A stretch of 64,000 bases of DNA from Mustelus asterias (taxonomy: Eukaryota), in assembly GCF_964213995.1 (NCBI RefSeq), contig NC_135825.1, positions 28,086,001 to 28,150,000 of the forward strand, written 5' to 3'. Of the stretch, positions 4,656 through 59,420 are shown in pieces. Below the pieces are notes generated by a model. That model did not search any database, was not told the DNA's origin, and worked only from the letters and a program-made list of their open reading frames with translations. Each line of letters starts with the position of its first letter. The first letter of the stretch is position 1. The position numbers and the translations under genes are program-made.

Positions 4656-5460
4656 CAAATGTTGAAGTTCACACAGTGAATTTGAATAGAGTGATTCCAA
4701 TTTACCAAGGTATCCCACACTCTATTCTGGCAGAAGCAGGTTTTTTTTAAATTGGGCGCATGTTGTGTTGGATCCTCAGTCAGTATTGATCTTGGCTCCC
4801 CAAATGTGTTGTTGCCCATGACTGAGATTTGCCACTGAGTTTTCAAATTCAGTTTAGCAACAATCATGTTGTAGAAATTTGCACAAAGAGAACAAAGCAT
4901 TTATAATACTAAGTCTACTTTTTGAGTGCTACTGCTTTTCTAGCGTAGAGATTCTTATGATGCAATTGTTTCTGTAGTACCATGCAGTGATTCATACTCA
5001 AATTTGTTTGTTTATTATGCATGATGGATTTGGAGTAATGATGAGAACATCTAAATATCTGCATTCCAGTTGTGTGTCTGACTGCACACACTTCTGGCCA
5101 TGGACCTACTGCTGTGAGAGTATTTAAAAAGTATGGACCACCACACACACTTGGGGATTATTTACTCCCTTAAGTGCTCTGTTCGGTTGTTTTCTACGCA
5201 TGTTGACTCTAACGGCTTTACATCCATCAGCACAGACAGAATCTGATCTTTGCCTTATATGCACATCTATTCCTCAAATCTTTGCACACTAGATGTAACA
5301 GTGTTAGATTGGATTTTAAGCTGCTGTATTCCATAGTACATTTTCTGTTTATGTACTGTTATTATTTACAAACTATATCAATGACTAGGATGAAGGAACG
5401 GAGTAGATTGTAGCTAAATTCACCGACAATAGAAAGGTGGGTAGGAAAGCAGGTTGTGAG

Positions 5461-8400
5461 AACAAAAGAACAATACAGCACAGGAACAGGCCCTTCGGCC
5501 CTCCAAGCCCGCGCCGCTCCCCGGTCCAGGATTGAATCCTGAATCCAGGATCCCCGCCCAATTTTCCAGCCTATCTACATCCTAATATCCTATCCACCGA
5601 GCTGTCCCTCACAGCTACGATGCTTTGTTCATCACAACCTATTAACTCACCCCCACCCCCCCATTCCAGACCATGTGATCTCCAGGGAGAGGCGAAAACC
5701 CAGAGTGAAAACCCCAGGGCCAATATGGGGAAAAAAAAAAATCTGGGAAATTCCTCTCCGACCCCCTGTGGCGATCGAAACGAGTCCAGGAGATCACACT
5801 GGCCCTGATCAGAAAATGCTTCCCAACCCTATTCATTTCCACTTCTGCTTTACGAACACCATCTGAATTCCCTGCCCCCGAGACAGGTTCCCAACTATCC
5901 GCAGTCTCGCTCTGTACTGGCACCAGCAAGATGATCATAGAATGAAGCCTTGAAACGAGAAACAAAGAACAATTAGCCCGCGCCGCTCCCTGGTCCAAAC
6001 TAGACCACTCTTTTGTATCCCTCCATTCCCACTCCGTTCATATAGCTGTCTAGATAAGTCTTAAACGTTCCCAGTGTGTCCGCCTCCACCACCTTGCACG
6101 GCAACACATTCCAGGCCCCCACGACGCTCTGTGTAAAATATGTCCTTCTGATATCTGTGTTAAACCTCCCCCCCCCTTCACCTTGAACCTATGACCCCTC
6201 GTGAACGTCACCACCGACCCGGGGAAAAGCTTCCCACCGTTCACCCTATCTATGCCTTTCATAATTTTATACACCTCTATTAAGTCTCCCCTCATCCTCC
6301 GTCTTTCCAAGGAGAACAACCCCAGTTTCCCCAATCTCTCCTCATAACCAAGCCCCTCCATACCAGGCAACATCCTGGTAAACCTCCTCTGTACTCTCTC
6401 CAAAGCCTCCACGTCCTTCTGGTAGTGTGGCGACCAGAACTGGACGCAGTATTCCAAATGCGGCCGAACCAACGTTCTATACATCTGCAACATCAGACCC
6501 TAACTTTTATACTCTATGCCCCGTCCTATAAAGGCAAGCATGCCATATGCCTTCTTCACCACCTTCTCCACCTGTGACGTCACCTTCAAAGATCTGTGGA
6601 CGTGCACACCCAGGTCCCTCTGCGTCTCTACACCCTTTATGGTTCTGCCATTTATCGTGTAGCTCCTCCCTACATTATTCCCACCAAAATGCATCACTTC
6701 GCATTTATCAGGATTGAACTCCATCTGCCATTTCTTTGCCCAAATTTCCAGCCTATCTATATCCTTCTGTAGCCTCTGACAATGTTCCTCACTATCTGCA
6801 AGTCCTGCCAGTTTTGTGTCGTCCGCAAACTTACTGATCACCCCAGTTACTCCTTCTTCCAGATCATTTATATAAATCACAAACAGCAGAGGTCCCAATA
6901 CAGAGCCCTGCGGAACACCACTAGTCACAGGCCTCCAGCCGGAAAAAGACCCTTCCACTACCACCCTCTGTCTTCTATGACCAAGCCAGTTCTCCACCCA
7001 TCTATCCACCTCCCCCTTTATCCCATGAGATCCAACCTTTTTCACTAGCCTACCATGAGGGACTTTGTCAAACGCTTTACTAAAGTCCATATAGACAACA
7101 TCCACGGCCCTTCCTTCGTCAACCATTCTGGTCACTTCTTCAAAAAACACCACCAGGTTAGTGAGGCATGACCTCCCTCTCACAAAACCATGCTGACTAT
7201 CGTTAATGAGTTTATTCCTTTCTAAATGCGCATACATCCTATCTCTAAGAATCTTCTCCAACAACTTCCACACCACGGACGTCAAGCTCACCGGCCTATA
7301 ATTACCCGGGTTATCCTTCCTACCCTTCTTAAATAATGGGACCACATTAGCTATCCTCCAATCCTCTGGGACCTCACCTGCGTCCAGTGACGAGACAAAG
7401 ATTTGCGTCAGAGGCCCAACGATTTCACCTCTCGTCTCCCTGAGCAGCCTTGGATAGATTCCATCAGGCCCTGGGGACTTGTCAGTCTTTATATTCTCTA
7501 ACAAACCTAACACTTCCTCCTTTGTAATGGAGATTTTCTCCAACGGTTCAACACTCCCCTCCGAGACACTCCCAGTCAACACATCCCTCTCCTTTGTGAA
7601 TACTGACGCAAAGTATTCATTTAGGATCTCCCCTACTTCTTTGGGCTCCAAGCATAAGTCCCCACTTTTGTCCCTGAGAGGTCCGATTTTTTCCCTAACA
7701 ACCCTTTTGTTCCTAACGTATGAATAAAATGCCTTGGGATTCTCCTTAATCCTGTCTGCCAAGAACATTTCGTGACCCCTTTTTGCTCTTCTAATTCCCC
7801 GTTTGAGTACTTTCCTACTTTCTTTGTACTCCTCCAGAGCTCCCTCTGTTTTTAGCTGCTTGGACCTAACATACGCCTCTCTTTTCTTTTTGACCAGTCC
7901 CTCAATTTCCCTGGTTATCCACGGTTCTCTAATCCTACCCTTCCTATCCTTCTTTTTTACAGGCACATGCTTGTCCTGTAGCCCTAACAACTGTTCCTTA
8001 AAAGACTGCCACATACCAGATGTGGATTTACCCTCAAACAGCCTCTCCCAATCAAGAGCTGCCAATTTCTGCCTGATCCCACTAAAGTTAGCCTTCCCCC
8101 AATCCAACACCTTACCCTTGGGACACCACTCATCCTTTTCCATCACTATCCTAAAGCTAACAGAATTGTGGTCACTATTTGCCACATGTTCCCCTACCAA
8201 AACTTTGAAGACCTGACCGGGCTCATTCCCCAGTACCAGGTCCAGTATAGCCCCCTCTCTAGTCGGGCTGTCTACATATTGTTCCAACGAACCCTCCTGT
8301 ACACATTTTACAAATTCCTCCCCATCCAGAGTCCCTGCCGTCAGCGATTTCCAGTCTATACCAGGGAAATTGAAGTCTCCCACTACAACAACCCTATTTT

Positions 8401-8772
8401 TCCTGCACCTATCCAGTATCTCCTGACATATCCATTCTTCCACTTCCCTTGGGCTGTTGGGGGGCCTATAGTACACCCCCAACATAGTGACTGCGCCTTT
8501 CCTGTTTCTAAGCTCCACCCAGAGTGACTCGTTACACGACCCCTCTGAATTGTCCTCCCTCTGCACCGCTGTAATATGCTCTCCAACTAATACCGCTACT
8601 CCCCCACCTCTTTTGGCCCCTCCTCTGTCTCGCCTAAAACACTTGTACCCTGGAATATTCAGCTGCCAGTCCTGTCCCTCTTTCAACCAAGTCTCTGTCA
8701 CCGCAACCACATCCAAATTCCTCGTGCGCATTAAGGCCCCAAGTTCGTCTGTCTTACCTGCTACGGTAAGAG
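5461..8772 (-). mobile_element. Young 5'-truncated CR1-clade LINE (HER1-like): APE endonuclease + RT + extended 3' UTR
   Basis: ORF2 motifs VTETWL, GVYYRPP, GDFNFP, SDHN, PGPDG, DFSKAFDKV, GVPQGSVLGP, KFADDTK. Candidate TSD GTGAG (5456-60 / 8773-77). Terminal ATTGTTCT-type repeat and CR1 end hairpin at 5461-5505. Confidence 0.96.
6000..8764 (-). pseudogene. CR1 ORF2 (EN-RT), nearly intact but disabled
   Basis: ORFs 6500-8845 and 6050-6493 are in the same frame, separated by one TAG at 6500-02. A C9 run (6168-76) frameshifts KVKGG|RFNTDIRR...GMEGYKRVV*, whose stop is at 6000-02. Confidence 0.9.
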
Positions 8773-9155
8773 GTGAGGGGGACACAAAGTTTGCAAAGGG
8801 ATAGATAGGGTTAGTGAATGGACAAAAATTTGGCAGATGGAGCATAATGTGGGAAAATAGGTTATTCAGTTTAGAAGAGAAAAACAGAATTACTTAAATG
8901 GAAAGAGATTGAAAAATACTATAGTAGAGGTGGATCTGTATCTAATACATGAATCACAAAAAGTTAGCATGTAAGTACTTGGAAGGCTAATGGAATGTTT
9001 GCCTTATTGCAAGATGGATAGAGTATAAAAGTAGTGAAATATTGCTGCAGTTGCATTGGTAAGACCACATCTGGAGACCTGTGTATGGTTTTGATCTCTT
9101 TATTTAAAGGGGGGTATGCTTCAATTAAAAGCAGCGCAGAGATGATTCATTAGGC

Positions 9156-11405
9156 TAGTGGTCTCCAAATAGTCATTTGCGATTGACAGGTCAATCCTGG
9201 AGTCTCAAAGTCAATTGTCATTGGCAGCTGATCCATTGCTGAAAATGCGCAGGACTCTGACTTCTTGTGATGATGAATGAATCAGCTCATTGAATGCTGA
9301 ACTGCGCCAAAAATGTGTGGAATTTGGGGTTGTCATGATGATGTGCAAATCTGTTCATTGACTGCCAAATAATGCCAAAAATATGTGGAACTCGGGCTAC
9401 TTGTGATTGACGAGTGAATCAGCTCATTGACTGCTGAAATGCAGGTGCCAAAATGTAAACTAAGCTGGGTGAAGACAAAACGATGAGCGAGGAGCCATGG
9501 ACTTTCAAGAGAGCAAAAACCTACCATTTCCACCAGGAATGTCAAAGACAAGACCATTTGTCTCCATCGTCAACAGAGTGAAGCTTTGAGTAATTTGTGA
9601 TTCATGTATTAGATACAGATCCACCTCTACTATAGTATTTTTCAATCTCTTTCCATTTAAGTAATTCTGTTTTTCTCTTCTAAACTCTAATTTGGAACGG
9701 CATCACAAGACAATGCATGCAAAACTTCAAGAAAATTCCCCTTTAAACCTGGATAAAGAAAGTTGAGGAATTAAAGACAATGTTGCAAGCTAAACAATCA
9801 AACTTTTCAAAACCTGTGGCTAAAGGCAACGCTAACAAAAATACATCTTTTCACATTTAGCTATCAGCTGGCAAAATATAAGAAACTGTTCACCGATGGC
9901 GAAGTTATCAAGGAAGCTATGATGGTCGCTGCTGACACCTTGTTCAAATACTTTATAAACAAAGATGAAATTATGATAGCCATCAAGAGCATGTTGGTTG
10001 ATGCTTTAACAGCAGCCAGAAGGGTGAATTTGTTGCCTGAGGAGATATCTCAGCAAAAACACCAAGATTTAACAGGCTATGAATGTTTCTGACTGCGGTT
10101 TGATAAGTCAGTAGACATGGTGGATACAGCCCATTGTTTTTATTTGCGTGGCATCCAACTGTGTAAAAACAAAGGAGGACTTCCTCTTTTGCCACTCAGA
10201 GGTGACAAGAGGTGAGGATGTCTACAGCGAATTTAAAAGGTATGCGGCTGAGAATATTCTAATCAAGAAACTGATTTCGATTGCAAGTAATGGTGCACCG
10301 TCAATGCTGGGTATGAATGCAGGCTTTGTTGTACTTTGCAGAAATGATCCTGGATTCCCCTCTTTTGTCAGTTACCACTGTGCTGTCCACCAACAAGCGC
10401 TAGTGAAGCAAGGTTATTGACTTTTCTCATTTTATGACAGTTGATGTCGAAATCATCAACTCAATTCGTGCCAGAGCTCCGCAACATCACTTGTTCAAAT
10501 CGTTACTCGATAAATTTGATGCCACCCAATGTTGAGCTAATCCTGCATGGAAATGTGAGGTGGTTAAGTCGAGGACAAGTCCCCCAGAGATCTGATCCCT
10601 GAAATTGTCACCTTTCTTAAATCATGAAACGAGGTGTGCAGCAAGTTGTCAGATAATGCCTGGTTGCCTGACTTGACATTTCTTATGGACGTAAGCGCAA
10701 AATTGAATGAGCTGAACCAGACTTGTCTCACATGATCAGTGTAAATGTATTCAAGTTGAAACTAGGCCTGTGGTCCTCCCAGTGAAAGAACAAAATTACT
10801 GAGCACTTCTCAAATCTGGAGAAAATCCAGCAACAGGTCAAACAGAAGGGTTCCATCTAAACAAATTCTGTGACTACCTGAACAAATTGGAAAAGGAATT
10901 TAATAGACAATTTCGGGAGTTAAACAAGATGGAACAAACCATTGTTTGTCTCAATCTTTTCTTCGGGGGACATTGGAGAACTGAAGCATCTCCATGCAAA
11001 ATGACATAGTGCTGGAAGCTAGGTCAAGGAGCAAAGACTTTTGGGGACTTGCAAAGAGAGCGAAACACCCTCTTCTGATGGTGTGTGCTCAAGATGAAGG
11101 CCTACTTTGGTTCCACAGACCTCTGTGAGGTGGCTTTTTCCTGGATAATAATCAAGTCCAACTATTGCACTCTTCTCACAGATGCCCATCTGATGGACTG
11201 TATGGGACTGGGCATTGCAAGCTACGACCCAGCACACTCAGATGGTGTGCAAGCACAGGTGCCACAATAAGAATAGGCAAGCGTTATGCATAAATACATT
11301 TTGAGGTGGGGGGGAGTTGTTTAGTAAAACCAAATTTTTAAGAGTAGATCTCATGCTGCATTCTGATGCTAAAAGTGATGTGTTTAAAAAGGTTTGAGCC
11401 AACTG
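9156..11405 (+). mobile_element. Decayed hAT DNA transposon (Charlie/SPIN/GTF2IRD2-like, Buster family)
   Basis: TIRs TAGTGGTCTCCAAA / GGTTTGAGCCAACTG. Degenerate 8-bp TSD CATTAGGC (9148-55) / CACAAGGC (11406-13). Transposase relics FTDGEVIKEAM, SNGAPSMLG, YHCAVHQQAL, LHGNVRWLSRG, FGSTDLCEVAFS. Confidence 0.9.
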
Positions 11406-12911: not shown

Positions 12912-13240
12912 AAGAATCATAGAATCCCTACAGTGCAGAAGGAGGCCATTCGGCCCATCGAGTCTACACCGACCACAATCCCACCCAGGCCCTACCCCCA
13001 CATATTTTACCCGCCAATCCACGCATCTCAGGACTCTAAGGGACAATTTTTAACCTGGCCAATCAACCTAACCCGCACATCTTTGGACTGTGGGAGGAAA
13101 CCGGAGCACCCGGAGGAAACCCACGCAGACAGGAGGAGAATGTGCAAACTCCACACAGACAGTGACCCGAGCCGGGAATCGAACCTGGGACCCTGGAGCT
13201 GTGAAGCAGCAGTGCCAACCACTGTGCTACCGTGCCGCCC
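12912..13240 (-). mobile_element. HE1-like tRNA-derived V-SINE, full length, CR1-type tail
   Basis: A/B boxes (GCACAGTGGTT, GGTTCGATTCCC), V-domain TGTGGAGTTTGCACATTCTCC..GGTTTCCTCCCACAGTCC, tail GGGCCGAATGGCCTCCTTCTGCACTGT..ATTCTATGATTCT. Confidence 0.9.
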
Positions 13241-14304
13241 CTATTCCCCTATTAAAGCAACCTCTGGCAATTCGACAGTGTTTCTGCAGCTGCAATGGCT
13301 TCCAATCATACAACCCTCACTTGAGACAATGCAATAACCTGACTTCAAAAATATGAGGCCTGCACTGACTATGGACTGAACAGATTCAATTTTTATAGAT
13401 ATCATTTATTTTAATTTTAATCTTTGTGTATATGTATTAATGACATTGTCTTTTTTTGAGTAACTTGCAGAGTGAAATAACCTAACCTTTAAGTGAAAAG
13501 GCTTTGTTGCTGGGTTATTTTAAATTGAATTTCTCCCTCAGGTAAGCAAAAATGTACGCACGTGCACAATTAAGGTTCAGAGGCAAGGATGAGTTCAGAG
13601 ATGTGTGAGAAATTCTATTCGAAAAGGGTGAACCGAAGGAAAAGAAAAGACTCACGAGTAATTTAATTAAGGATTTTAAAATGATGGAAGGTTTTTATAG
13701 AGTATACAGATTGAGAATATTTCCATTTGTGGGGGATGAGAAAACCCGAAAAACCAACACAAGAAAGCCAGCAAGAAGTAACATGGGAAAAATAGGTTAC
13801 AGGGACATGGGGAACAGGTGGGGAGGTGGGTTTGAGACCAGGAGAGATCAGCCATGATCTGACTGAATGGCAGAGTAGGCTCGAAGGACTGAATTTGCCT
13901 ACTTCTGCTCCAAATTCCTATGTTCTTGTGTACTATGAATTTAGAACAACCTTTTTTTCCCAGTGTGGTGAGAATGTGGAAGACAGTACCACAATGTGAT
14001 TGTAGTATAGATCCATTGAAGAGGAGGATGATAAGCATAAAAGGAAGTAGGCAGTAAACTGTAATGCTTCTGTGGATCAATCTGGTGAACCTTTGTTGCA
14101 TTCCCGCTGTGGCAAGTATTTCTTTGTTGTTTAAAAAAATGGCCACTCCAAAATCTGAGAGTTTCAAACAAGCAAAGATTTATTTTGAGTACTTGCAAGG
14201 GAGTGAGAGAACCTCAGCAAGCCAAGGAATCTCTCGATGCTATCTCGCATTTATAGTTCTTAACTCCTTGATTCCCTCTTAGCTCAACTTCCAGCCTTAA
14301 GACA

Positions 14305-14596
14305 GGCCGGCACAGTGGTTAGCACTGCTGCCTCAGCGCCAGAGACCTGGGTTCGATTCCCGGCTTGGGTCACTGTCTGTGTGGAGTTTGCACGTTCTCC
14401 CCGTGTCTGCGTGAGTGTCCTCCGGATGCTCTGGTTTCCTCCCACAGTCCGAAAGACGTGCTGGTTAGGTGCATTAGCCATGCTAAATTCTCGTAGTGTA
14501 TCCGAACAGGTGTCTGAGTCTGGCAACTAGGGGATTTTCACAGTAACTTCATTGCAGTGTTATGTAAGCCTACTTGTGACCGTAATAAAATAAACT
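14305..14596 (+). mobile_element. V-SINE with alternative (Rex-Babar-like) tail
   Basis: Same head and V-domain as HE1; tail TTTTCACAGTAACTTCATTGCAGTGTT..GTAAGCCTACTTGTGAC..AATAAA. Confidence 0.85.
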
Positions 14597-14859
14597 AGTT
14601 TCCATGGTGACTTGACTATCTTACCTGGTCTCCAGTGGTCACCACATCTGCTTGCCCTATTCAGCAATGAATGTCTGTGCAAGCTGCTGCTATTGTTACA
14701 ACTGCAAGCTAGCAGCCTCTATGACTATCCTTGGCCAAGGATCCCATCATGCCTGAAATGAGTCAATACCATTTCCTTCGTTTGCCTATTCTAAATAACA
14801 TTTTAATATCAAATAAAATGATTTCAATTGTCTCACTTTACTTGAGTAAGGAAACCAAA

Positions 14860-16610: not shown

Positions 16611-17113
16611 AGAAACATAGAAAAACTACAGCACAATACAGGCCCTTCAGCCCACAAAGTTGTGCCGAACATGTCCCTACCTTAGCGATTACTAGGCTTA
16701 CCTATAACCCTCTATCTTACTAAGTTCCATGTACTTATCTAAAAGTCTCTTAAGACCCTATCGAATCCGCCTCCACCACCGTTGCTGGCAACCCATTCCA
16801 CGCACCCACCACCCTCTGAGTGAAAAACTTACCCCTGACATCTCCTCTGTACCTACTCCCCAGCACCTTAAACCTGTGTCCTCTTGTGGCAACCATTTCA
16901 GCCCTAGGAAAAAGCCTCTGACTGTCCACTCGATCAATACCTCTCAACATCTTATACACCTCTATCAGGTCACCCTTCATCTCTCCAAAGAGAAAAGGCC
17001 GAGCTCACTCAACCTATCCTCATAAGGCATGCTCCTCAACCCAGGCAACATTTTTGTAAATCTCCTCTGCGCCCTTTCTATGGCTTCCAAATCCTTCCTG
17101 TAATGAGGCGACC
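16611..17113 (-). mobile_element. CR1 (HER1-like) 3' fragment
   Basis: GDLIEVYKMLRGIDRVDSQRLFPR..TRGHRFKV..FFTQRVVGAWN, short 3' UTR and TTTCTATG repeat. Confidence 0.92.
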
Positions 17114-17699: not shown

Positions 17700-19085
17700 C
17701 AAAAGAGCTGAACTCGATGAGGTGAGAGTGATTTTTCCATCAAGGCAGCATTTTACCGAATGTGACATCAAAGAGCCCTAGCAAAACTGGAACCAATGAT
17801 AATCAGGGGGTAAACTCTCCACTGGTTGGAGTCCAATCAAGCACAGGGAAATATGGTTTGGTTTCAGAGGTCAAACATCAATCCCAGAACAGCAGGAGTT
17901 TCCCAAGATAGTGTCCTGGCCCAACCATCTTCAGCTGCTTCATCAAAGACCTTCCTTCCGTCATATGGTCAGTAGTGTGGGTGTTTGCTGATGATTGCAC
18001 AATGTTCAGTTTCATTCCATTCACGATTCCTCAGATACTGAAGCAATCTGAGCCCATGTGCAGCAAAACTTGGTCAGGTTTGGGCTGATAAGTGGCAAGT
18101 AACACTTGCACGAGGCAAATGCCAGACAATAACCATCTTCAATCAGAGAGAATCCAACTATCTCCCCTTGACATTCAATGGCATCGCCATCACTGAATCC
18201 CTCATAATCAACATCTTGGGGGTTATTCTGTGTGGAGTTTGCACATTCTCCTCGTGTCTGCGTGGGTTTCCTCCGGGTGCTCCGGTTTCCTCCCACAGTC
18301 CAAAGATGTGCGGGTTAGGTTGATTGGCCAGGTTAAAAATTGTCCCTTAGAGTCCTGGGATGCGTAGGTTAGAGGGATTAGCGGGTAAAATATGTGGGGG
18401 GAGGGCCTGGGTGGGATTGTGGTCGGTGCAGACTCGATGGGCCGAATGGCCTCCTTCTGCACTGTTGGGTTTCTATGTTTCTAGACCAGAAACCGAACTG
18501 GAACAGCTATATACAAGAGCAGGTCAGAGGTTGGGAATTCTGTGAAGAGTAACTTACCTTCTGACTCCCCAAAACCTGTCCCCCTCCTACAAGGCACAAG
18601 TCAGGAATACTCTCCACTTGTCTGGATGAGTGCAACTCCAACAACATTCAAGAAGCTTGACCTATCCAGGACAAAGCAGCCCGCTTGATTGGCACCCCAT
18701 CCACCATCTTAAACATTTACTCTCTCCACCCCAAAGCACTGTGGCAGCAGTATTTATCTTCGACAGGATGCGCTGCAGCAGCTCCATTGACAACACCTTC
18801 AATAGCTGTGACTTCTGCCACCTATAAGGACAGGGGCAGCTGGTGCATGGGAATAGCATCACCTGCATGTTCCTCTTCAAGTCATACACACCACCATGAA
18901 TCCAAAATTATATTGCTGTTCTTTCACTATCGTTGGGTCAAAATCCTGGAACTCTCTTCCTAATAGCACTGTGGGTGTACCTACACCACATAGACTGCAG
19001 CCGTTCAATAAGGTAGCTCACCTCCACTTCTAAAGAGAAATTAGGGATGGGTAATAAATCTTGGCCTAGCCAGTGATGGGCACAT
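17700..19085 (+). mobile_element. Old CR1-group (Zenon-like) LINE RT + 3' end, interrupted by a SINE
   Basis: SVLGPTIFSCFI-like and VFADDCTMF motifs, YKAQVR..EYSPL, IQDKAARLIG; 3' AATTAGGGATGGG tail. Confidence 0.8.
18227..18483 (+). mobile_element. 5'-truncated HE1-like V-SINE (CR1 tail)
   Basis: Near-identical to the reverse complement of 12912-13160. Confidence 0.9.
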
Positions 19086-23460: not shown

Positions 23461-23730
23461 GGGGCGGCACAGTGGTTAGCACTGCTGCTTCACAGTGCCA
23501 GGGACCCGGGTTCGATTCCCGGCTTGGGTCACTGTCTGTGTCGAGTTTGTACGTTCTCCCTGTGTCTGCATGGGTTTCCTCCGGGTGCTCCCGTTTCCTT
23601 CCACATTCTGAAAGACGTGCCGGTTTGGTGTATTGACCCGAACAAGCGCTGGACTGTTGCGAATAGGAGAATTTCACAGTAACCTAATTTTAGTGTAGTG
23701 TAAGCCTTACTTGTGAATGATAAATAAACT
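23461..23730 (+). mobile_element. V-SINE with Rex-Babar-like tail
   Basis: Head + V-domain + TTTCACAGTAA..TACTTGTGA..TAAATAAA. Confidence 0.85.
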
Positions 23731-25699
23731 TGCTTACAATTTGAGTTCAGATAAATGTATTGGGCATATTTAGCCAAAATTAACTCGTTAATCCAACATT
23801 ATGGAATTTAATTTTGTTTTGAAATATTTTTGTTTCCAGTTGGGGGAAAAAAATTCCTAGATTAAAAATAGAGTTTATGTGCACGTATGAAGAAACATTT
23901 AATGGGTGGCAATATTGTGTTACTAAATTAACACCGTTTACTTTCAGTTGTGACATTATGTCGAGGCCTTCATTGATGTGTATTTTTAATTTATTTCTTG
24001 GAAAGAACTGGATTAATTCACAAAAATTCACTAAAAATTAAACATGTGGGTGACTATGGCAAGGCACATTTATTATGATTATTTGCTTTTTATGTTTGTG
24101 CTGCATGGTAGTTGGAATCTGGATCTCTGACACTCTTGCAAGATCAGCTCTTGTTTCACTATCATTTGTGAGATTTCCTGTGTTAAATTCACTAAAGTGA
24201 GATCATATAATAATATGCATTTATACTTGGCTTCCTATCAGTATTAGGGCCATCTCATACATTTTAAAAATACTTTTCAAGTAATTTAAAATATACAATT
24301 ATTTTACTTTTTCTGCATGTTCGTTACTGTTAATTTGCTATCCTAATATCCATGGGAATAGTAAGTTATCTTGACAACTGCAGGCAACTGTTTTAACTGT
24401 ATACACGGACTGATGTAACAATACCCTGTGTCATAATCAGCACTTTGATTGAAGTTATGTTATTTCTATTAGCTGTTATTACAGATCCTAAAAATGTGTA
24501 TTTTGCTGAAAAGATTATTTGGCTGAATGGAAAAAAATACTGTGTATGTGGTTAAGGATTATTTTGCAAGGTAGGCATGGGTGAATGGAATCGTATTGAA
24601 CGGTCAGAACAAGGTTGCAGTGAACTCTTAATTGCAGGTGCCACATGAGATATTAATGTTGCGGTATGTTGTGAAGGATGCAAGGTCTTGAAGGGTTGAG
24701 AATCAGTTGGGAGATGCAGTTATTCAGTTAATCATTAAGTGAATTACATTGTGATGGTTTTGTAAATTGGACATTTTCTAGATGTAAAATGCAGATTAAG
24801 CTTTTGTTTTAGCTCTGTTCTTGTGATGTGGATGAGTCTGCCAGGGCTACATTTATTGCTGACACCTGGTTGCTCCTTGATTTGCCACTGCCCTTTTGAT
24901 GCTGGTTATCCCATGATGCTGCCGTGGAGGCAATTCCAGGATATTAACTCAAGTCAGAATTGTGCGCGACTTGAAGGAATTAGTGTTCTCATGACTTATT
25001 GCTCTGGTCTTAGTGGTAGAGATTGGAGGGGCAATGAAGTATTGGCCAAATAATTCACCAAGATTACTGCTATGCATCCCGGAGATCATATGTGCTTAAG
25101 CATTGTTTTTTCACTGCTGCTGCTTTTAGTAGTGTAAATGAAATTACAATGATCAAAATTTGTATTTGTTGTAGGATAAGTATCCTTTACATGCTATGCA
25201 GTAAAGCTAACTTAATGGTAGTGTTGCAACATTAAATGGAGTTGTGTGTGTAGCGAATCAAAGATATCAAGGTCCATTTAATTGATTTGTTTCTATCCCT
25301 ATATTGTACTATTGCTTATCTATTATTATAGTAAGCTTTTGAATCTTTGACCAGAAATTCGCTTCTCAACACTTGAATGTGCTTAAAGTCTGGGCAATTG
25401 ACAATTGTTATGAATATTTGGAAAGCAAAATTCATGATAGAAATATGCCGAGAAGAGAATTGTAAACAGACTCCTTGTTTTTAGCAGAATGCAGCAAAAT
25501 GGACAATGTCTTTGTTGCAAGGCTTTTATAGTCCACTTCTTACAGTGTTGTCGATGAGTATTGTGTTCATCTGCAAATGTGAAGCACTGGTATCTAAATT
25601 GAACAACTTTCTTCACCCTTCCTTTTTGACTGACCTTTTCTAGGTAAGGGAGAGTTAATTATTGTATTTGAATCTAAGTACTCCAGGCTCCCCTGATGC

Positions 25700-26030: not shown

Positions 26031-26185
26031 AGGTGAAACTTTCATAGTTAAAGAAACAAAACCAGAGAATCTAATAAGCTTTAATGGTCTTTTGACAATT
26101 CTGATTTTCTTGTGCTAAAAATGACAATTGAGTATCACTACTGTTGATCCGAGAGGAGGGGGTGCATATGGTGTCATAAATCAGG

Positions 26186-26365
26186 TAAGAAGTTTAACAA
26201 CACCAGGTTAAAGTCCAACAGGTTTATTTGGTAGCAAAAGCCACACAAGCTTTCGAGGCTCGAAAGCTTGTGTGGCTTTTGCTACCAAATAAACCTGTTG
26301 GACTTTAACCTGGTGTTGTTAAACTTCTTACTGTGTTTACCCCAGTCCAACGCCGGCATCTCCAC
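26186..26365. mobile_element. Penelope-like fold-back insertion (perfect 73-bp-arm palindrome + 3' extension)
   Basis: Arms 26185-26257 / 26259-26331 with a 1-nt spacer; 13-bp TSD GTCATAAATCAGG (26173-85 / 26366-78). Confidence 0.85.
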
Positions 26366-31000: not shown

Positions 31001-32378
31001 ACGCATCTCTCCTGTTCCTAATTTCAAATTAATTGGCCTATAGCTACCAGGGTCCATTTTGTCTCTTTTCAAAGATGGGGACTACATTTGCCTCTTTCGG
31101 ATCTATAGGAACCATTTCAGAGTGGCATTGAACTATTAGAAATGCAGTGAGTTATTCAAAATAATAGGTAAAGTGTTGCACATCAATTAACCAATTTTCC
31201 TGAGAATGTTCAAGGGCATATCCTCTGCCCAGGCTCCTCTATCTTCAAATTTTTAACAAAGTTCTATTTTCATCAATATTATTCCCAGTTCTATTATTAA
31301 ATTCTAATAGTTCTAATATTTTCTAGGAAAATAGTGAAGTCATAGTTATTTTATGTAATATAGAAAACATTAGCAGGGATTAAATTGGCAAAAGCGGTGA
31401 AGTGCACAATTTTTTAAAGACAAACCATCAACACCAGCAATGCAGTTAAAATACGATAATGGTGCCATGTGGTGCCACAGCATCATGACATCACAGCTAA
31501 AATCTGCACCTGATTGAAAAACATTATTACATCACAAGAGCTCAGTTGTGATTCATTTAGTGTTTTGTGATTTACTATTACATTTCCCTCCACACTCAAA
31601 GATTCAGAAGTCGCAAACTTCTGACATCATGTGTGTGGTATTTGGAATACATATTCTGTTTAAAAAGAATACCAACAATTATCGCTCGAATTTCAGAAAA
31701 TTCTAAACAAAGAAATTATACTTTATGCACTTTAAAAAAATTTTTGGCGTATCCTGGCAAGATACTGTGATAGCAAATCTTAGGACATCTTGGGCAGCAA
31801 TATCTTGATTTCCACAGTTAACTGCACATGCTCATTCTCAGGGTGTTGTTTGATTTATTCTTGAGTAAATAACCTCAGTAATATTATTATTGCAAAAGGT
31901 AGACCATTATTAATTTTAATCTTGTTGCTATTAATCTATTCCCAAGGTTTATCTGTCTCTAATTCCAAACTATAAATCCACTTTTTAATGCAGTATCATT
32001 GAATTCAGTGGTGCATAGTTTTACTTGGCTGTGATATTGCAATGTTAGGATCCTGTCCATACCTGGTTTTGGCTTAATTAATTCTCTGCTGCTTTTGCTG
32101 ATACATTAATTTGTCATTCTGTTTGCTATTTTGGATCTAAAACATAATGATGCTTTTACAATTACCTGCTACCTGACACCATTGAGCTCTGTAAAGATGC
32201 TTGTTCACCAATTTAGGGAAAACATAGCTCATTTATTTTGCAGGTTAAAACTGTACAAAGGCTTGCAGCCTCATTGTTGCAATCAGCTCCCAAGATGACT
32301 GAGTACAGAAGGCCGCGCTTCCTAGGGTGATCTCCTACCCTGCTCTCTGATTGAATCCCTGGGCCATGTGACCCTTAT

Positions 32379-32650
32379 GGGTGGCACGGTGGCACACTGG
32401 TTAGCACTGCTACCTCACAGCGCCAGGGTCCCGGGTTCAGTTCCCGTCTTGGGCCACTGTCTGTGTGGAGTTTGCATCTTCTCCCTGTGTCTGCGTGGAT
32501 TTCCTCTGGGTCCTCCGGTTTCCTCCCACAGTCTGAAAGATGTGCTGGTTAGGTGCATTGACCCGAACAGGCGCTGGAGTGTGGCGACCAGGGTAATTTC
32601 ACAGTAACTTCATTGCAGTGTTAATGTAAGCCTTATTTGTGACTAATAAA
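32379..32650 (+). mobile_element. V-SINE with Rex-Babar-like tail
   Basis: Head + V-domain + alternative tail. Confidence 0.85.
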
Positions 32651-37513: not shown

Positions 37514-37630
37514 TCATGATGTGGAGATGCCGGCGTTGGACTGGGGTAAACACAGTAAGAAGTTTAACAACACCAGGTTAAAGTCCAACAGGTTAACCTG
37601 TTGGACTTTAACCTGGTGTTGTTAAACTTC
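37514..37630. mobile_element. Second Penelope-like fold-back insertion (36-bp arms), nested in an older Penelope-like element (~37330-37680)
   Basis: Arms 37559-37594 / 37595-37630 with no spacer; TSD GTAGGGTGGGAA (37502-13 / 37631-42); shared part identical to the 26186 element. Confidence 0.85.
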
Positions 37631-38098
37631 GTAGGGTGGGAAGACAGAAGATAGTTGTTCATGGGCAAAATGTTTTATACTTTGGATATCTCCAATACAA
37701 AGTCGTTGAGGCAACATGAATAGCTGCATTTGAGGAGAAAGGAATAGAAGTATACCCTGGTGGTGCTAGATAAAGTAGGATGGAAGGAGACTCATATATA
37801 GCATAAATACCAGCATAGACCACGTGGTCCAAATGGCTTGTTCCTGTGCTGTCGGCTGAATCTTACCATTCCCCAGAAGGTGGGAAGGGAGGTTTGGGTA
37901 GTAAACTCTGGGAGAGTTGGGTTGGATCGGCGTCCCATTGTCAGGGCATTGTTAGAAACTCTGCAGGCCAAAGATTTTATGATTTTGAAAATATCTCACA
38001 TTAAGTAATTGAGGTAGTTAGCATAGCTGTGTTTAAGGAGAAAGGAGTAGAAGTATATCCTGATAGTGTTAGATAAAACATTGGTGTACATACCCAAA

Positions 38099-38400
38099 GG
38101 GTGGCATGATGGTACAGTGGTTAGCACCGCTGCCTCACAGCACCAGGGACCTGGGTTCAAATCCTGGCTTGGGTCACTGAGTGTGTGGTGTTTGCACATT
38201 CTCCCTGTGCCTGCGTGGGTCCTCCGGGTGCTCCGGTTTCCTGCCACAGTCCGGAAGACATGTTGGTTAGTTGCATTGGCCATGCTAAATTCTCCCTCAG
38301 CGTACCTGAAAAGGTGCCGGAGTATGGCGACTAGGAGATTTTCACAGTAACTTCATTGCAGTGTTAACTTAAGCCTACTTGTGACTAATAAATAAACTTT
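38099..38400 (+). mobile_element. V-SINE with Rex-Babar-like tail
   Basis: Head + V-domain + alternative tail. A solo copy of the tail also occurs at ~41625-41687. Confidence 0.85.
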
Positions 38401-40250: not shown

Positions 40251-40373
40251 GGGTGGGATTTTCCGGCCGTGCTCGCCCCAAAGCTGGAAAATCCCGCCCA
40301 AGGTCAACAGACCTTTGTATGGTCCGTGTCCCGCTACAATTCCCGTGGCAGGCGGGACGGGAAAATTCCACCC
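40251..40373. mobile_element. Short MITE (PIF/Harbinger-type)
   Basis: TIRs GGGTGGGATTTTCC / GGAAAATTCCACCC; 3-bp TSD CAA. Confidence 0.75.
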
Positions 40374-42023
40374 CAAGTTCATTTGCAACTTAAAATATGG
40401 GACATGCAGGTAAGCATGAGGTGGCAAGCTGTGAAAAGCTGGGCTTTTGTGGAACGGAGATCTCTGTCCAATATCCAGATAAACCACTGTACCGCTGGGA
40501 TTGAATGCTTCCAAACTGTATCCCAGGAATAGCTTGGTTTTTCTGCTGCTATTGAAGTTGGGTAATGTGCAAGAACCAAGAACCAGGAAAACTGCCCAGT
40601 GCGGTTCCTGGTTTAGACTGGAGATCTGACTTGGATGATAAGAATTCACTTTTTTCCATTCCTGTCAGATGTTGAGGTATTGCTAGTTTCAAACTTTATT
40701 TGGCAAAGGGCATGGGCACAGATTGTGAAAACAGCCATGCAGGAGGCAAGCTTTAGTCAAACTACAAATAGAGCATTCATAACTCAACAAACAACGCATG
40801 AGAGGCTGAACCTAATTGAAAAAAGTAAAATTGCATCTCACTTCACTGGTACATCAGTTACCAATGAGATGTTAACAACACCTTAACTCCACAACATTTA
40901 AAACAGTAGCAACTTCAGCAGGTGGAGGGAGGGCATCCTGGTTAGGGGTCTGCAGGACATCAATTTTGCTGCATCTCCAAGGTACTCTGGTCCTCCATCA
41001 GTCATCTTGCCCTGTGCAGTCTGCTACTGTAGCAGATTCCAGGATCAGGGCATTCCTCCCTCAATGCAAAGATCTTGCAGTGGCAATGAACTGGGAAACC
41101 CAGCAATAGAAAATTAGTTGAAGTCATATCCTTCTGGCAGGTTTTCAGAAACTGGCATAATTCCAAATGAGGGCATAGCAAGGAACATTGCAGGAGATAC
41201 AGTCAATCCCAGGATATTTGTTTCATCTAGTTGACTGTATGGCCATTTTCAAAATAAGAATTTCGGCGATCAGAAACTCACCATATTAGAGTCCATTAGG
41301 TGTCCCTAATTTACAAGGTTCACTGTAAATATATAATATAACATATTTATATTTTTGATAGCTATAATTGTCAGGTTTTTTTTTGCATGAGAAGAAAACA
41401 ACTGAATTAGGGATAATTTATCAAACTAAAAGATAAAAATATCAGGATATTGGAAGATGTAGGGTTAGGAAGCTCAGAGAAGAATGCTACGTATGCTTGG
41501 AACTCTGAAACCACCTCAAAATGAAAGCTTTTTCTGCAATAATACAATTTGAATTCTTAATTGGCTAACAATTCATCTCTTAAATAATAGGAAGAAATCA
41601 TTGTCATCAGAGGTTTTCCCAAAAGGGGATTTTCACAGTAACTTCATTGCAGTGTTAATGTAAGCCTACTTGTGATTAATAAATAAAGATAAGGACTCTG
41701 GCTGCAGTTTAAATTTTGTTAATGGCACTTTGGATTTAAGTATTTATTTATGGAACCTTATTTTTGCAATATGTTCCACATGGATTTATATTGCCTAAAT
41801 ATGATTGATTTTCACATTTGTATCCATAAATAATCCAAGTGTAAAATGTTATAATTTTGAATTGTCCTTGATGTGGAGAATAGATTATTACCTTTTGGTA
41901 TATCTTCATGATGAGAATGGATGGCATAACTGACAATGCAAGTTAATTATGTGTGAACATGATATTCCTGATTAGAATTGGCATCTGAACTGTGTAATAA
42001 GGCCTTTTAAGCATTTTTAAGTA

Positions 42024-46400: not shown

Positions 46401-47080
46401 TTCTGATGCTTCAGTCATTGCCTATGTGCATTCTTTCTCCACACCACCTCTCTGGTCGTTGCACACAGTACCCTCTACAGTCATCCAGTGATCCAGGCTG
46501 CAGCTTTTCAGCTAAATGCTGTCACCCTGTGAACATCATGTTGATCCAGTCATTAATCAGACCAATGTGAATTCCTACAAGATATGCTGTGGGGTGGGAG
46601 CATTCTAGTTGGCTGCTTATTTAAGAAACAATGATCTGCTGATCCAGTTCCCATGTCCGCCATTATTCCACTATGATAATTGGGATCCCGAGATCCTGCC
46701 GGCATTTGTCGCTGTCAGGAAATCGATTGTTTTCCTCCTTACTCTCTGCCCCTGCCTCCCAGGAATCCCGTATCTGGCGGGAAAGGAAAGTTCTGTCCAC
46801 AACGTGTGGCATCTGCAGTTGTACAGTGTACTCTATTGTGCTTCTAGCAGCTGGCAGTACTGTATCTGGATGATGCATCAAGCAGAACATTTACTGTTAA
46901 TCCTAATTGCATATCTCAAATTAACATAATTTTGTTGAACATCTTTGCTCTTTTATCTCGTAGAGCATATAGCTTACAAAATTTAGGGGATAGTTTTGTA
47001 ATCATGAGCAAGTAGACCCCTCCTTCTCAAAACAAGATAAAATGTTTTCCTGTTTGTTGTTTCTGACTTTGAGATGAGAT

Positions 47081-47405
47081 GGGCGGCACGGTGGCACAGT
47101 GGTTAGCACTGCTGCCTCACAGTGCCACGGATCCGGGTTTGATTCCCGGCTTGGGTCGCTGTCTGTGTGGAGTTTGCACGTTCTCCTCGTGTTTGCGTGG
47201 GTTTCCTCCGGGTGCTCCGGTTTCCTCCCATAGTCCAAAGATGTGCGGATTAGGTGGATTGGCCATGTAAAATTGCTCCTTAGTATCAGGGGAACCAAGA
47301 GAGTAAATGTCTGAGGTCATGAGCAAAGGGCCTGGGCGGGAGTGTGGTCTGCAAACCCAATGGGCCAAATGGCCTCCTTCTGCACTGTTGGGATTCTATG
47401 TTCTA
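47081..47405 (+). mobile_element. HE1-like V-SINE, full length, CR1 tail
   Basis: A/B boxes, V-domain, GGCCTCCTTCTGCACTGT..ATTCTATG tail. Confidence 0.9.
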
Positions 47406-48487
47406 AGGGGAAAATAAAAGTTGCCAACCCCCTGTTGGGAAAGCTTGTGTGCCATTGAGTCCAGTGACGAGTTGCAGAGACTTCAAGTGAGACTGTGCAA
47501 ATATTTCACTTGTGCAATAAGGGCTTGTTCATCTTTAACTTGACCTGTATATTTTAATAAACCGCCAGGGGAATTTATGCTGTTCCTTGACTTGATTTAT
47601 AGCCAAAAATAGGATAAATTACTATACCCGCTTAGAGACTCATTGGTCAAGCCTCTTCTTCTAGCTTCATGGCTAGAGGGTGAAGTTTCAGAGCAGCAGA
47701 CCATTCCTTCCCATCAAACGAGATGTGTGCAATGAATTGTAACACTTTCACTGTTAACAGGATCACTATAATATCAATCATATTTAATGCCAGACTGATG
47801 CAATTACAGGGGGCATACTCCTTGGGACATGGGGTAATTTCAGCAAAACCAGTGAGCTGGCATTCTGTGGAGACCTTGAGAAGATTACAAATTGCTTGTG
47901 GGAATTTTGTAATCCACTAAGAGTTGTTTTTATACTTTCTTTAGAAACTGGGTCATTTCTATTTATCAGTCTTTCAGCTGAATTTCACCTCTGTTCATAT
48001 TGATTTGGGAAATATATTACAAATTCCACAAGCCTTTCTGGAATGATTTATTCTGTTGTGCTGATGTTTAGTAACTTGGACGATTCAGTATAATTTAGCA
48101 CGACAGGTGAGAGAAAATTCAAGAGTAGCATACCATGGAATAGTTGTTTTTGTTTACATACCACCCGATAGCCTGCCTGGATTTTTAAAATGTCTGTTTA
48201 AGAAATTACTTTTGCTTTTTGAAGATTATTGCAAGCAATTTAAGTTTTGAGTTTAATTAGCTTCTGGCTTTAAGTTTGGCAAACTCATTCTGAATCTTGT
48301 CCCTGCTGTCTGCTGGCAGGTAGATTGGATGGCAGGAAAGGTTCTTGCACTTTCGTAAAACTGCATTTCCGTTGTGGAATTCCCTGGTATGTCTTGTATG
48401 TAATGTTGCGTAGGTAGGAGTGTTGACCTTAGCCTTGCAGAAATGTAGGGTTTTCCTTATGAAAGGGACCAACAGGTAAAGCAGGTA

Positions 48488-48674
48488 CAGAAATAGAAAA
48501 TGCTGGAAAATCTCAGCAGGTCTGACAGCATCTTTGTCAGAGCTCTGACGAAGGATTATCCAGACTCTAAATGTTGGCTCCATTCTCGCTCCACACATGC
48601 TGTTAGACCTGTTGAGATTTTCCAGCATTTTCTGTTTTTGTTTCAGATTTCGGCATCTGCAGTATTTTGTTTTT
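48488..48674. mobile_element. Penelope-like inverted element with decayed minimal hammerhead
   Basis: Arms AAAATGCTGGAAAATCTCAGCAGGTC / GACCTGTTGAGATTTTCCAGCATTTT; axis GTCAGAG|CTCTGAC; CTGACGA at 48545; degenerate TSD AGRTAAAGCAGRTA. Confidence 0.75.
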
Positions 48675-52509: not shown

Positions 52510-52756
52510 AGAAGCAAATTACTGTAGATGCTGGAAGCTGAAACAAAACTGAAAGCACTGGAAAATCTCAGTGAGTCTGACAGCATCTGTGGGGAGGGAA
52601 CAGGGCGAACATTTCAAGTCTTAACGACCCTTCGTCAATTGAAATTAGGATGTTGTCTTCAGCTCTGACGAAGGGTTAAGACTTGAAATGTTAGCTCTGT
52701 TCTCTCTCTCCACAGAAACTGCTAAACCTGCTGAGATTTTCCAGCATTTTCTGTTC
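52510..52756. mobile_element. Penelope-like inverted element with minimal hammerhead core on both arms
   Basis: Imperfect ~100-bp arms; + strand AGCT-CTGACGA-A-GGGT-TAAG-ACTT-GAAA-TG-TT-AGCT (52661-96). Confidence 0.78.
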
Positions 52757-57419: not shown

Positions 57420-59420
57420 GACAATACCGACAATGCAACCAGGAAGGAGCAATGTGAAATATTAGATGAAAATGACATTGTGAGAGGGGAAGCATTAGGG
57501 GGTTTAACCTTTTTAAAATTGGACAAATTCCCGGGCCTGGAATGAAATTTATTCTAAATTGTTACGGGAAGCAAGAGAAGAAATAGCAAAGCTCTGACCA
57601 TTTTTAAATCCTCTCTGGCTACAGGCATGGTGTCAGAGGACTGAAGAACTATTAACATACCATAGTTTAAAAAATGAGAAAGGCATAGACTGAGTAAATA
57701 GGTGCCAGTCAGCCTAACCTCAGTGGAAAACGTTCTGAGGGACAGAATAAATTTTCATGTAGAAAAACAGGGATTAATCAAAGACAGTCAGCACAAACTT
57801 AAGAGAAGATCATGTCTGACTAACATGTTTGAAATCTTTGAGGAGGTAACAAGGACGGTAACAAGGAGGTCAATGAGATGCATTTGATGTAGTTTGTGGA
57901 TTTTGACAAGGCTTTTGATAAAGTCCCACATAGCAGACTGGTCATTAAAGCCCATGAGTTTCAAGGTAAGCTGATGTGTTGGATCCAAAATTGGCTTGAG
58001 GGCAGAAAGTAGAAGGTAATGTTTATTGAGTACTTTTGTGACTAGAAAGCTTTTTGGCTGGGATTCTGCAGGGCTCAGTTCTAGATTGCTTGCTTTTGTG
58101 CTCTATATCAATCATTTGGAATTGAACATGGGGGTAATGATTAAGAAGTTTGCAGATGATGCAAAAATTAGCCATGTGGTTGATAGTGAGGAAGAAGGCT
58201 GTAGATTGCAGGGGGCTAGTCTGGTTGGTGGAACAGTGGCAAATGTTATTTGACCCATACAAGAGATAATGTATTTGGGGAAGGCTAACCAGGTAAAGGA
58301 ATAAACGATAAATGGTTGAATACTGAGAAGTAGAGAGGAACTGAGGCACCATGGAGGGCATGTCCACAGATCTGTGGAGGTGGCTGAACAGGTAGATAAG
58401 GTGATCAAGAAGACATACGGGATACTTGCCTTTATTAGCTGAGGCCTGGAATATAGGAGCTGGACTGTGTAAAAACACTAGTTAGCTGGAGTACTGTGTG
58501 CAGTTCTGGTAATTTCCAAGAAAGATGGAATTGGTCGAGAGGGTACAGAGGAGATTTACAAGGATGTTGTGGAGACTGGAGAATTTTAGTAATGAGGAAA
58601 GGTTAGTTTGGCAATTGAGTTCCGAATAAGTCATATTGGACTTGAAATGTTAACTCTGTTTGTCTCTCCACAGAAGCTGCCAGATCTACTCAGTTTTTCC
58701 AGCACTTCATTTCAAATGTCCATCATCAGTTTTTGCTTTATCACATTAGATTGGCTAGGGTTGTTTTCATGGTGCAGAGGAGGCATGGTGTTGTCCCAGT
58801 TGAAGTGCATAAAATTGAGGGCTCTGGAAAGAGTGGATAGAAAGGAGTGGATAATTTGGGGACATTGATTTAGGACAGGTGGTGGGAGATAAGCAGCGAT
58901 TTTGAGGAGAAATGTTTTTATAGAAGGTGATTTGTTCGGCCCATCAAGTCAGCACCAACTTTCTGACAGGGCATCTTACCCTGGCCCTATCCCTGTAATC
59001 CACATATTCACCCTGTTAATCCCCTAACCCACGCATCTTTGGACACTAGGGGCAGCTTGGCATGGCCAATCAACCTAACCTGTACATCTTTCAGACTGTG
59101 GGAGAAAACCAGAGCACCTAGATGAAACTCATGCAGATGTGGGGAAAAGGTGCAAACTCTACACAGTCACCCAAGCCGGAATTGAACCCATGTCCCTGGC
59201 ACTGAGGCAGCAGTGCTTGCCACTGTGCCGCCCTATTGTGCACCGTGTCACCCTTTTCACCCAGAGGTTGTTGGGAATCTGGAACTGACAGCTGGGTAAC
59301 TCGTAATATTTAAGAAGTAATTGCAAATGCACTTGTAGTATAACCCACAGGCAAGTGGGATTAGGTTGGATCACTCCTCTAGTGGGAAGTGGAATGGGCT
59401 GGTGTGGACATTGATGTAAA
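57420..59420 (+). mobile_element. Old CR1 RT/3' fragment interrupted by a Penelope-like piece (~58610-58745) and a SINE
   Basis: PVSLTSV, RSCLTN, KAFDKVPH, KKFADDAK, LEYCVQFW motifs. Confidence 0.85.
58920..59233 (-). mobile_element. HE1-like V-SINE (older copy)
   Basis: Reverse complement of head, V-domain and CR1-type tail. Confidence 0.85.

Follow-up and report, generated by a model that had tools for sequence, protein, structure and literature searches.

A conserved structured RNA module in CR1 3' UTRs, uncatalogued and possibly a poly(A) clamp

A window of 64,000 nucleotides from Mustelus asterias (contig NC_135825.1, positions 28,086,001 to 28,150,000) contains a CR1 element on the minus strand, and a segment of its 3' UTR, at window positions 5671..5802, folds into several stems. 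Is this fold a functional RNA, how far does it extend beyond the one element, and what could it do there? A preliminary description had proposed five nested helices and raised the possibility of a ribozyme. We find that the segment is a real, deeply conserved and uncatalogued RNA module of CR1 3' UTRs. By analogy, we propose that it may be a poly(A) clamp working like an ENE, with a probability of about 0.4. New here are an older lineage with the module, the structure controls, a truncation test and a 9-bp partner of the apical loop.

In ORF2 of the host copy, an in-frame stop codon lies at 6500-6502, and the frame changes further 3'. Its parts, apart from the module, are as follows.

6000..8780, minus strand: CR1 ORF2, 5'-truncated, from the endonuclease to the RT C-terminus (5' end approximate)
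5975..5997, minus strand: first copy of a 23-nt direct repeat, which in a short-UTR sister subfamily runs directly into the terminal hairpin
5529..5974, minus strand: 446-nt insert, missing from the sister subfamily, opening with a tail-repeat-like stretch
5615..5637, minus strand: weak second hairpin, also present in the older lineage; region 5600-5645 has z -1.3, which by itself is not significant
5556..5583, minus strand: 28-nt piece derived from the element's own ORF2 (6738-6765, 26/28 identical)
5459..5528, minus strand: second copy of the direct repeat, then the standard terminal hairpin of CR1 and a short tail repeat, without poly(A)

Because the insert sits between the 23-nt direct repeats, starts like a tail and has the ORF2 piece at its end, its layout suggests an origin by capture of downstream sequence. 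The distance from the module to the element's end is 215-340 nt. The module is distinct from the standard terminal hairpin and repeat, as had been claimed, the terminal unit lying separately at 5459-5528. The CR1 3' ends near 16611 and 27537, described earlier as devoid of the module, do have short UTRs in which it is missing. A covariance-model search of the whole window gave one strong match (162 bits). The next one (16.6 bits, E 0.053) lies at 40270-40408 in an inverted-repeat element with GGAATTTTCC-like arms, and was judged unrelated to the module.

On the minus strand, the claimed sequence and all five helices are present. The helices stand, but their nesting does not, since the GAUC/GGUC hairpin is a side arm. 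The predicted fold is a three-way junction of the closing stem P1, the side hairpin P2 and a long arm, in which P3, the lower loop (AAUUU/UUUUCG), P4, the upper loop (U11/UUUUCAC), P5 and the apical loop UAUUGGCCC follow one another. The features are listed below in the 5' to 3' order of the RNA, with reference to a bird-like homologue described further on.

5797..5805, minus strand: GGGCCAGUG, candidate long-range pseudoknot strand, the apical loop's best complement in the whole insert (9 bp, -14.4 kcal/mol)
5786..5798, minus strand: P1 5' strand (10 bp, U.U and 2 bp)
5760..5776, minus strand: P2 side hairpin GAUC/GGUC; GCC(A) opens its loop; retained in the bird-like homologue
5753..5758, minus strand: P3 5' strand GAGAGG (purines only), with two double changes in the bird-like homologue
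5748..5752, minus strand: lower U-rich internal loop, 5' side AAUUU
5742..5747, minus strand: P4 5' strand CCCAGA
5731..5741, minus strand: 5' side of the upper U-rich internal loop, U11 (8-12 nt depending on the copy), missing from the bird-like homologue
5712..5730, minus strand: P5 hairpin, with apical loop UAUUGGCCC at 5717-5725; its AUUGGC is common to the bird-like homologue
5705..5711, minus strand: upper internal loop, 3' side UUUUCAC
5699..5704, minus strand: P4 3' strand UCUGGG
5693..5698, minus strand: lower internal loop, 3' side UUUUCG
5674..5692, minus strand: P3 and P1 3' strands

The minimum free energy of the 132-base module is -54.9 kcal/mol, against -40.2 +/- 3.5 for shuffled sequences (z -4.17), and none of 200 shuffles is as good. 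The opposite strand also folds strongly (z -3.42; 1/200 shuffles), so folding energy alone cannot assign the module's strand. A longer closing stem competes for the bases of the seventh GGAGAGG/CCUCUCC pair, and in the older lineage this stem has 13 bp. The lower loop is U3/U4 in all 35 copies readable by the pattern (39 tried). It lies between G-C pairs, CC/GG above and GG/CC below, the latter set off from it by AA and a YG/G step. The upper loop is flanked by C-G above and A-U below.

The Rfam covariance models gave no match at gathering score in the whole window. At E up to 10, region 5450-6050 yielded four chance matches, none of them a ribozyme, and no family, including ribozymes, IRES, 7SK, MALAT1 and SECIS, matched the module. 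A likeness of GAUCGCCAG to 7SK was considered and dropped, as nothing in Rfam supports it. Since the bird-like loci are likewise without an Rfam match to the module, the preliminary view of an uncatalogued structured element holds for the window and for both of these loci. A literature search for the module or its motif letters returned only unrelated work (Dfam and Repbase outside its scope), and the CR1 literature found, as far as its available text goes, describes nothing in the 3' UTR beyond the terminal hairpin.

Searching the 3.68-Gb genome by DNA sequence gave 1,026 candidates at first look, of which 40 were scored; in all 30 copies fetched, the module sits within the same UTR, with 95-100% identity. 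Exact matches in the genome to a 28-base motif at the element's end number 15,060, divided by tail variant into 9,345 of the insert type, to which the window copy belongs, and 5,715 of the sister type without the insert. Exact counts favour the younger group, and we therefore read the two subfamilies as about equally numerous. In the first 30 places sampled, 13 show the insert-type variant and agree with the insert over all of it that they cover; in the other 17, ORF2 is joined directly to the terminal hairpin, and these ORF2 sequences are 92-97% alike to that of the window copy. With the module missing from these 17 relatives, the earlier term "optional cargo" proves apt. The majority sequences of the young insert type and the sister differ at 19 of 400 ORF2 bases. 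Judged by divergence from their own majority, with medians of about 1.5% (n=8, one outlier at 13%) and about 3% (n=16) respectively, the insert-bearing copies look younger than the sister copies. The two subfamilies form a natural pair, making the module's role directly testable.

The module also occurs in an older CR1 lineage of the same genome. A pattern excluding most young copies has 34 matches in the genome (control 0), and 6 of 30 fetched copies are divergent; further searches led to a set of 26 decayed copies, 69-89% alike to their majority. The old majority runs from the C-terminus of CR1 ORF2 through about 30 bases to the module and a different terminal region, and the module's context is a LINE UTR behind ORF2 in both the young and the old lineage. 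Young and old sequences agree at 105/120 aligned bases in the module, 72/120 upstream and 49/70 downstream, a contrast inflated by the use of module motifs in finding the old copies. In the old majority, P1 has its full 13 bp and the lower loop reads AA-U4/U6-G, where a U.U has become C-G in the young family by a double change. The second hairpin at 5615-5637 is a perfect 9 bp in the old majority and is retained through G.U pairs in the young family.

Outside this genome, a metagenome scan returned 71 loci, two of which (L068 and L120) are homologues by their flanks; the other 69 were judged by eye to be chance matches, 7 of them also by model. L068 and L120 are two contigs of one sample, each holding a full homologue. 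We take the CR1 pieces in L068 to be of bird type, hence the label "bird-like". No ORF2 lies within 2 kb of the module in the DNA fetched for either locus, for which reason their CR1 origin is putative. The bird-like homologue has P2, a GGAAGG/CCUUCC P3, a lower loop AAUUUU/UUUUUUG and an AUUGGC loop on a different, loop-free stem. Its lower loop is AA-U4/U6-G, as in the old majority. These two loci thus bear out the claim that the module has homologues beyond the subfamily, with a GGAAGG/CCUUCC stem as described there.

We notice that L068:690-1240 and L120:1583-2100 belong to a multicopy non-coding family, in which the module is followed by two progressively degenerate tandem copies with a period of about 175 nt, and that about 700 bases upstream of the module are in common. 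No Pfam, Rfam or ORF2 match was found in this family, and a coding reading was rejected, with no Pfam family above cut-off in 11 translations. Thirteen spurious translations point to further members. Eight of the 22 sequencing runs listed were examined (eight organisms), and each has several to many contigs on the stretch, with contig depth across the 8 runs peaking inside the module; these are summed contig depths in runs chosen for holding the stretch, and not copy numbers.

For turtles and frogs, a similar motif had been suggested, and what was found is fragments only. The frog consensus CR1-2_XT carries a 14-nt remnant, TTTGCCTTCCTCTG, between ORF2 and the terminal hairpin, the one record among 119 subfamilies in the supplement of PMC4316615, whose trimmed alignment (Suh 2015) lacks the ORF2/UTR boundary and so retains a remnant only. 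The spurious 72-residue peptide P0028 (DRHIWG..EGIF..RLA..RLPLQ; one of 19 matches, 7 of which are long proteins matching by chance) would be weakly compatible with a third version of the module on other stems. In the Mustelus asterias genome, neither a pattern search for the GGAAGG/CCUUCC form nor a DNA search with the bird-like module gave a match. Viral and prokaryote collections gave 0, 0, 1, 9 and 6 loci, and all 16 match the profile only at the seed pattern.

Is it the structure that has been conserved? We aligned 11 real sequences by MAFFT, not fitted to structure. In this alignment 78.1% of the P1-P3 cells pair, against 69.3 +/- 1.6 in shuffled alignments (0/500) and 40-49% with slid partners, and the covariation score is 0.30 versus 0.19; two of the five alignment measures are weaker (15/500 and 91/500 shuffles). 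Between the shark-like and bird-like rows there are clean double changes, two in P3 and three in P1, on a covariation base of only two or three independent lineages. Pair counts on a model-fitted alignment (A3) were set aside, as it had been fitted to the structure and includes 6 chance rows.

A covariance model built from three young copies was compared with a control in which P3-P5 are slid one column off. L068 scores 25.2 bits (E 0.0006) with the right structure, 14.7 with the slid one and 11.6 without structure; L120 scores 16.0 bits (E 0.11), is not listed with the slid model and reaches 8.1 without structure. None of 9 chance loci reaches E 1 with the right model. Among the 20 old copies searched of the 26, only 9 scored better with the right structure than with the slid one, an outcome expected of neutral decay that gives no support. 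The bird-like sequences are no more stable than shuffles, L068 having z -1.6 to -2.1 and L120 z -0.6 to +0.9.

What could such a module do? In ENEs, short helices near the 3' end flank U-rich internal loops that clamp poly(A), and in double ENEs (dENEs) two such loops are parted by a short duplex, with an adenosine triad and a 3'-end pocket in addition (available text of PMC13541005). In the ENE of Evade, the G-C pairs beside the U tracts are essential, and when the ENE is lost, RNA stability and the number of new insertions both fall (PMC12501189, in the part available). The likeness of the U-rich internal loops, closed by G-C pairs, to an ENE, to which the preliminary description did not refer, makes us favour a poly(A) clamp. 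The module has U runs on both strands of an internal loop, short flanking helices and G-C pairs adjoining the U runs, although the runs are short, with 3-4 U on the lower loop's 5' side. The two-loop layout of dENEs is present in the shark-like versions and absent from the bird-like homologue. Against the clamp, AA opens the 5' side of the lower loop, where the young family has no more than three U, the conserved AUUGGC and GAUYGCC are not among the ENE parts described in the available text of PMC13541005 and PMC12501189, and the sister without the insert has spread about as well.

In the proposed mechanism, CR1 transcripts would read through the tail repeat and be polyadenylated downstream, and the U-rich internal loops would clamp this poly(A) tail in U.A-U triples. 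The lower loop would take an A strand, with 3-4 U opposite 3-4 U, AA facing two bases and the G bulged; in shark-like versions the upper loop may also take an A strand. The side hairpin and the apical loop might supply a tertiary contact or a protein site. A clamped tail would slow RNA decay and likely raise element output, and the module would not be required for copying. We speculate that part of the UTR of another CR1 was captured by the young subfamily and came to lie between two copies of the subfamily's terminal unit. The poly(A) ligand of the clamp is assumed, since the insert-type CR1 3' UTR holds no AAUAAA or AUUAAA, no A run >4 lies downstream of the module, and the copies terminate in a short repeat instead of poly(A).

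The nearest relatives of such a clamp would be the dENEs of plant and fungal transposons, as in rice hAT TWIFB1 and in the Arabidopsis Copia93/Evade ENE (PMC13541005, PMC12501189). As far as the available text of these sources goes, the module has in common with them the location in a transposon 3' UTR of an intronless RNA, G-C pairs beside the U runs and, in the shark-like versions, two U-rich loops with a short duplex between them. It differs in its host, a vertebrate non-LTR element ending in a short repeat and not in poly(A), and in its three-way junction with a side hairpin, its conserved apical loop and the AA at the foot of the lower loop. This comparison is one of loop anatomy, as the adenosine triad and pocket are named without sequences in the part of PMC13541005 available. 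With KSHV PAN ENE and the triple helices of MALAT1 and MEN-beta, the module shares a U-rich loop between short helices, a single loop in PAN as in the bird-like version (PMC13541005, available text). Unlike them, it has shorter U runs and no downstream genomic A-rich tract; L001, L068 and L120 hold no tRNA-like gene, and Rfam gives no match to these families. A further comparison is with the 3'-terminal stem-loops of stringent LINEs (UnaL2, ZfL2; PMC4176376) and the CR1 hairpin with its octamer repeat (PMC4316615), which are likewise structured RNAs of LINE 3' UTRs in the available text. The essential signal of these elements is separate from the module, which is located upstream of it and does not occur in a sister subfamily that looks active. 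It is not an essential RT-recognition stem-loop, being absent from 17/30 close relatives that have the terminal hairpin.

The rival readings put the U-rich loops to other uses or to none. It is possible, and in our estimate doubtful, that the module is a compact tertiary RNA unrelated to ENEs, in which the apical AUUGGC pairs with GCC(A) of the side hairpin, or in shark-like versions with GGGCCAGUG 5' of P1, and the U-rich loops are hinges. Just as tentatively, such an RNA would bind a host or element protein (for export, RNP assembly or translation) or block a nuclease. AUUGGC and the side-hairpin motifs are kept from shark-like to bird-like versions while the stems between them change, and the loop's best complement within about 460 nt adjoins P1 in the two shark-like majority sequences (-14.4 and -12.5 kcal/mol), pairing over 9 bp in the young and 8 bp in the old majority. 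Among 167 twenty-mers along the element, 3 equal the part of GGGCCAGUG outside P1. The bird-like loci lack this 5' partner, which tells against the long-range pairing; there GCCAG in P2 gives 5 bp. The AUUGGC-GCC pseudoknot proposed in the preliminary description can form in all four versions (-4.6 to -7.1 kcal/mol), but with only 3-5 bp that compete with CC/GG inside P2, and its strands are invariant and do not covary. Neither loop pairing has a compensatory change behind it, the arm length varies between lineages, and the kept, opposed U runs would be left unexplained.

The layout of the insert could also mean that the module is a passenger, the young CR1 having lost its first terminal hairpin and read through genomic DNA with the UTR of an old CR1 and another terminal unit, so that the module is now idle there. 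The direct repeats, the tail-like start, the ORF2 scrap and the close relatives without the insert all fit this account. We consider it unlikely, because the young module is intact (z -4.2), agrees with the old majority at 105/120 bases (a figure inflated by motif-based finding) when the genomic old copies themselves reach 69-89%, and shows double changes against the bird-like homologue that a passenger would not explain. A self-cleaving ribozyme of a new class, to which a multi-helix junction, conserved unpaired bases and a possible pseudoknot would be suited, is very improbable. No ribozyme appears among the Rfam families at E up to 10, and a cut here would separate ORF2 from the tail that its RT needs, going by stringent LINEs in the available text of PMC4176376. 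As an indirect test, 48 insert-type copies taken in genome order show 6 ends inside the module at six different places (7/48 if L213 is counted at its end near 5739), a rate of 0.10 per 100 nt compared with 0.04-0.12 elsewhere. With no common 5' end and no Rfam ribozyme, that part of the preliminary description finds no support. An element acting at the DNA level or in antisense has a similarly slight chance: read on the opposite strand, ATTGG is a CCAAT box, ATTGGC is invariant and the opposite strand folds at z -3.4, so the symmetry could be that of DNA or of an antisense structure. A factor site has no need of helix-keeping changes in P1 and P3, however, the U.G pairs in P2 fit the sense strand, and the translations across the bird-like family are spurious frames without Pfam domains.

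The same 48 copies show no clear 5'-end excess in the module, and the idea of an RT barrier was set aside. Six of them (L220, L233, L243, L247, L248 and L261) have their 5' ends at the same ORF2 base, window-equivalent 6174, and upstream of each lies another CR1's tail repeat. From these junctions, the six may descend from a chimeric master that itself spread.

Returning to the poly(A) clamp, ENE triple helices are on record for viruses, for two lncRNAs of vertebrates and for transposons of plants and fungi, and a genome-wide search cited in PMC12501189 counted about 200 ENE motifs, mostly in plants and fungi. Our literature search found no ENE or triple helix described for vertebrate LINEs (primary ENE surveys outside its scope). 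If the clamp reading is true, vertebrate LINEs would have in the module their first element of ENE type, and repeat-tailed LINE RNAs would carry and guard a poly(A) tail that is never seen in their DNA copies. CR1-group elements make up 22-34% of shark and ray genomes (PMC13343379, available text). A broader picture, which we hold only tentatively, is that of a portable RNA device predating the split of cartilaginous fish and tetrapods and passed between CR1 lineages, with a poly(A)-clamping triple helix and a loop-loop lock. Even if it proves to be no ENE, the module remains a structured RNA that is uncatalogued and deeply conserved.

The window holds several other repeats. Just past the 5' end of the CR1 element, a perfect 93-bp inverted repeat pair (8868-8960 and 9594-9686) encloses about 630 bases. 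Near-perfect palindromes of 147 and 78 bp, with sequence in common, lie at 26185-26331 and 37516-37633, and a second inverted-repeat family at 48487-48641 and 52547-52755. A dispersed family of 200-330 bp, its members 70-93% alike, occurs at 12913-13240, 14304-14604, 18227-18484, 23462-23738, 32376-32650, 38099-38399, 47079-47405 and 58935-59234, and is probably a SINE.
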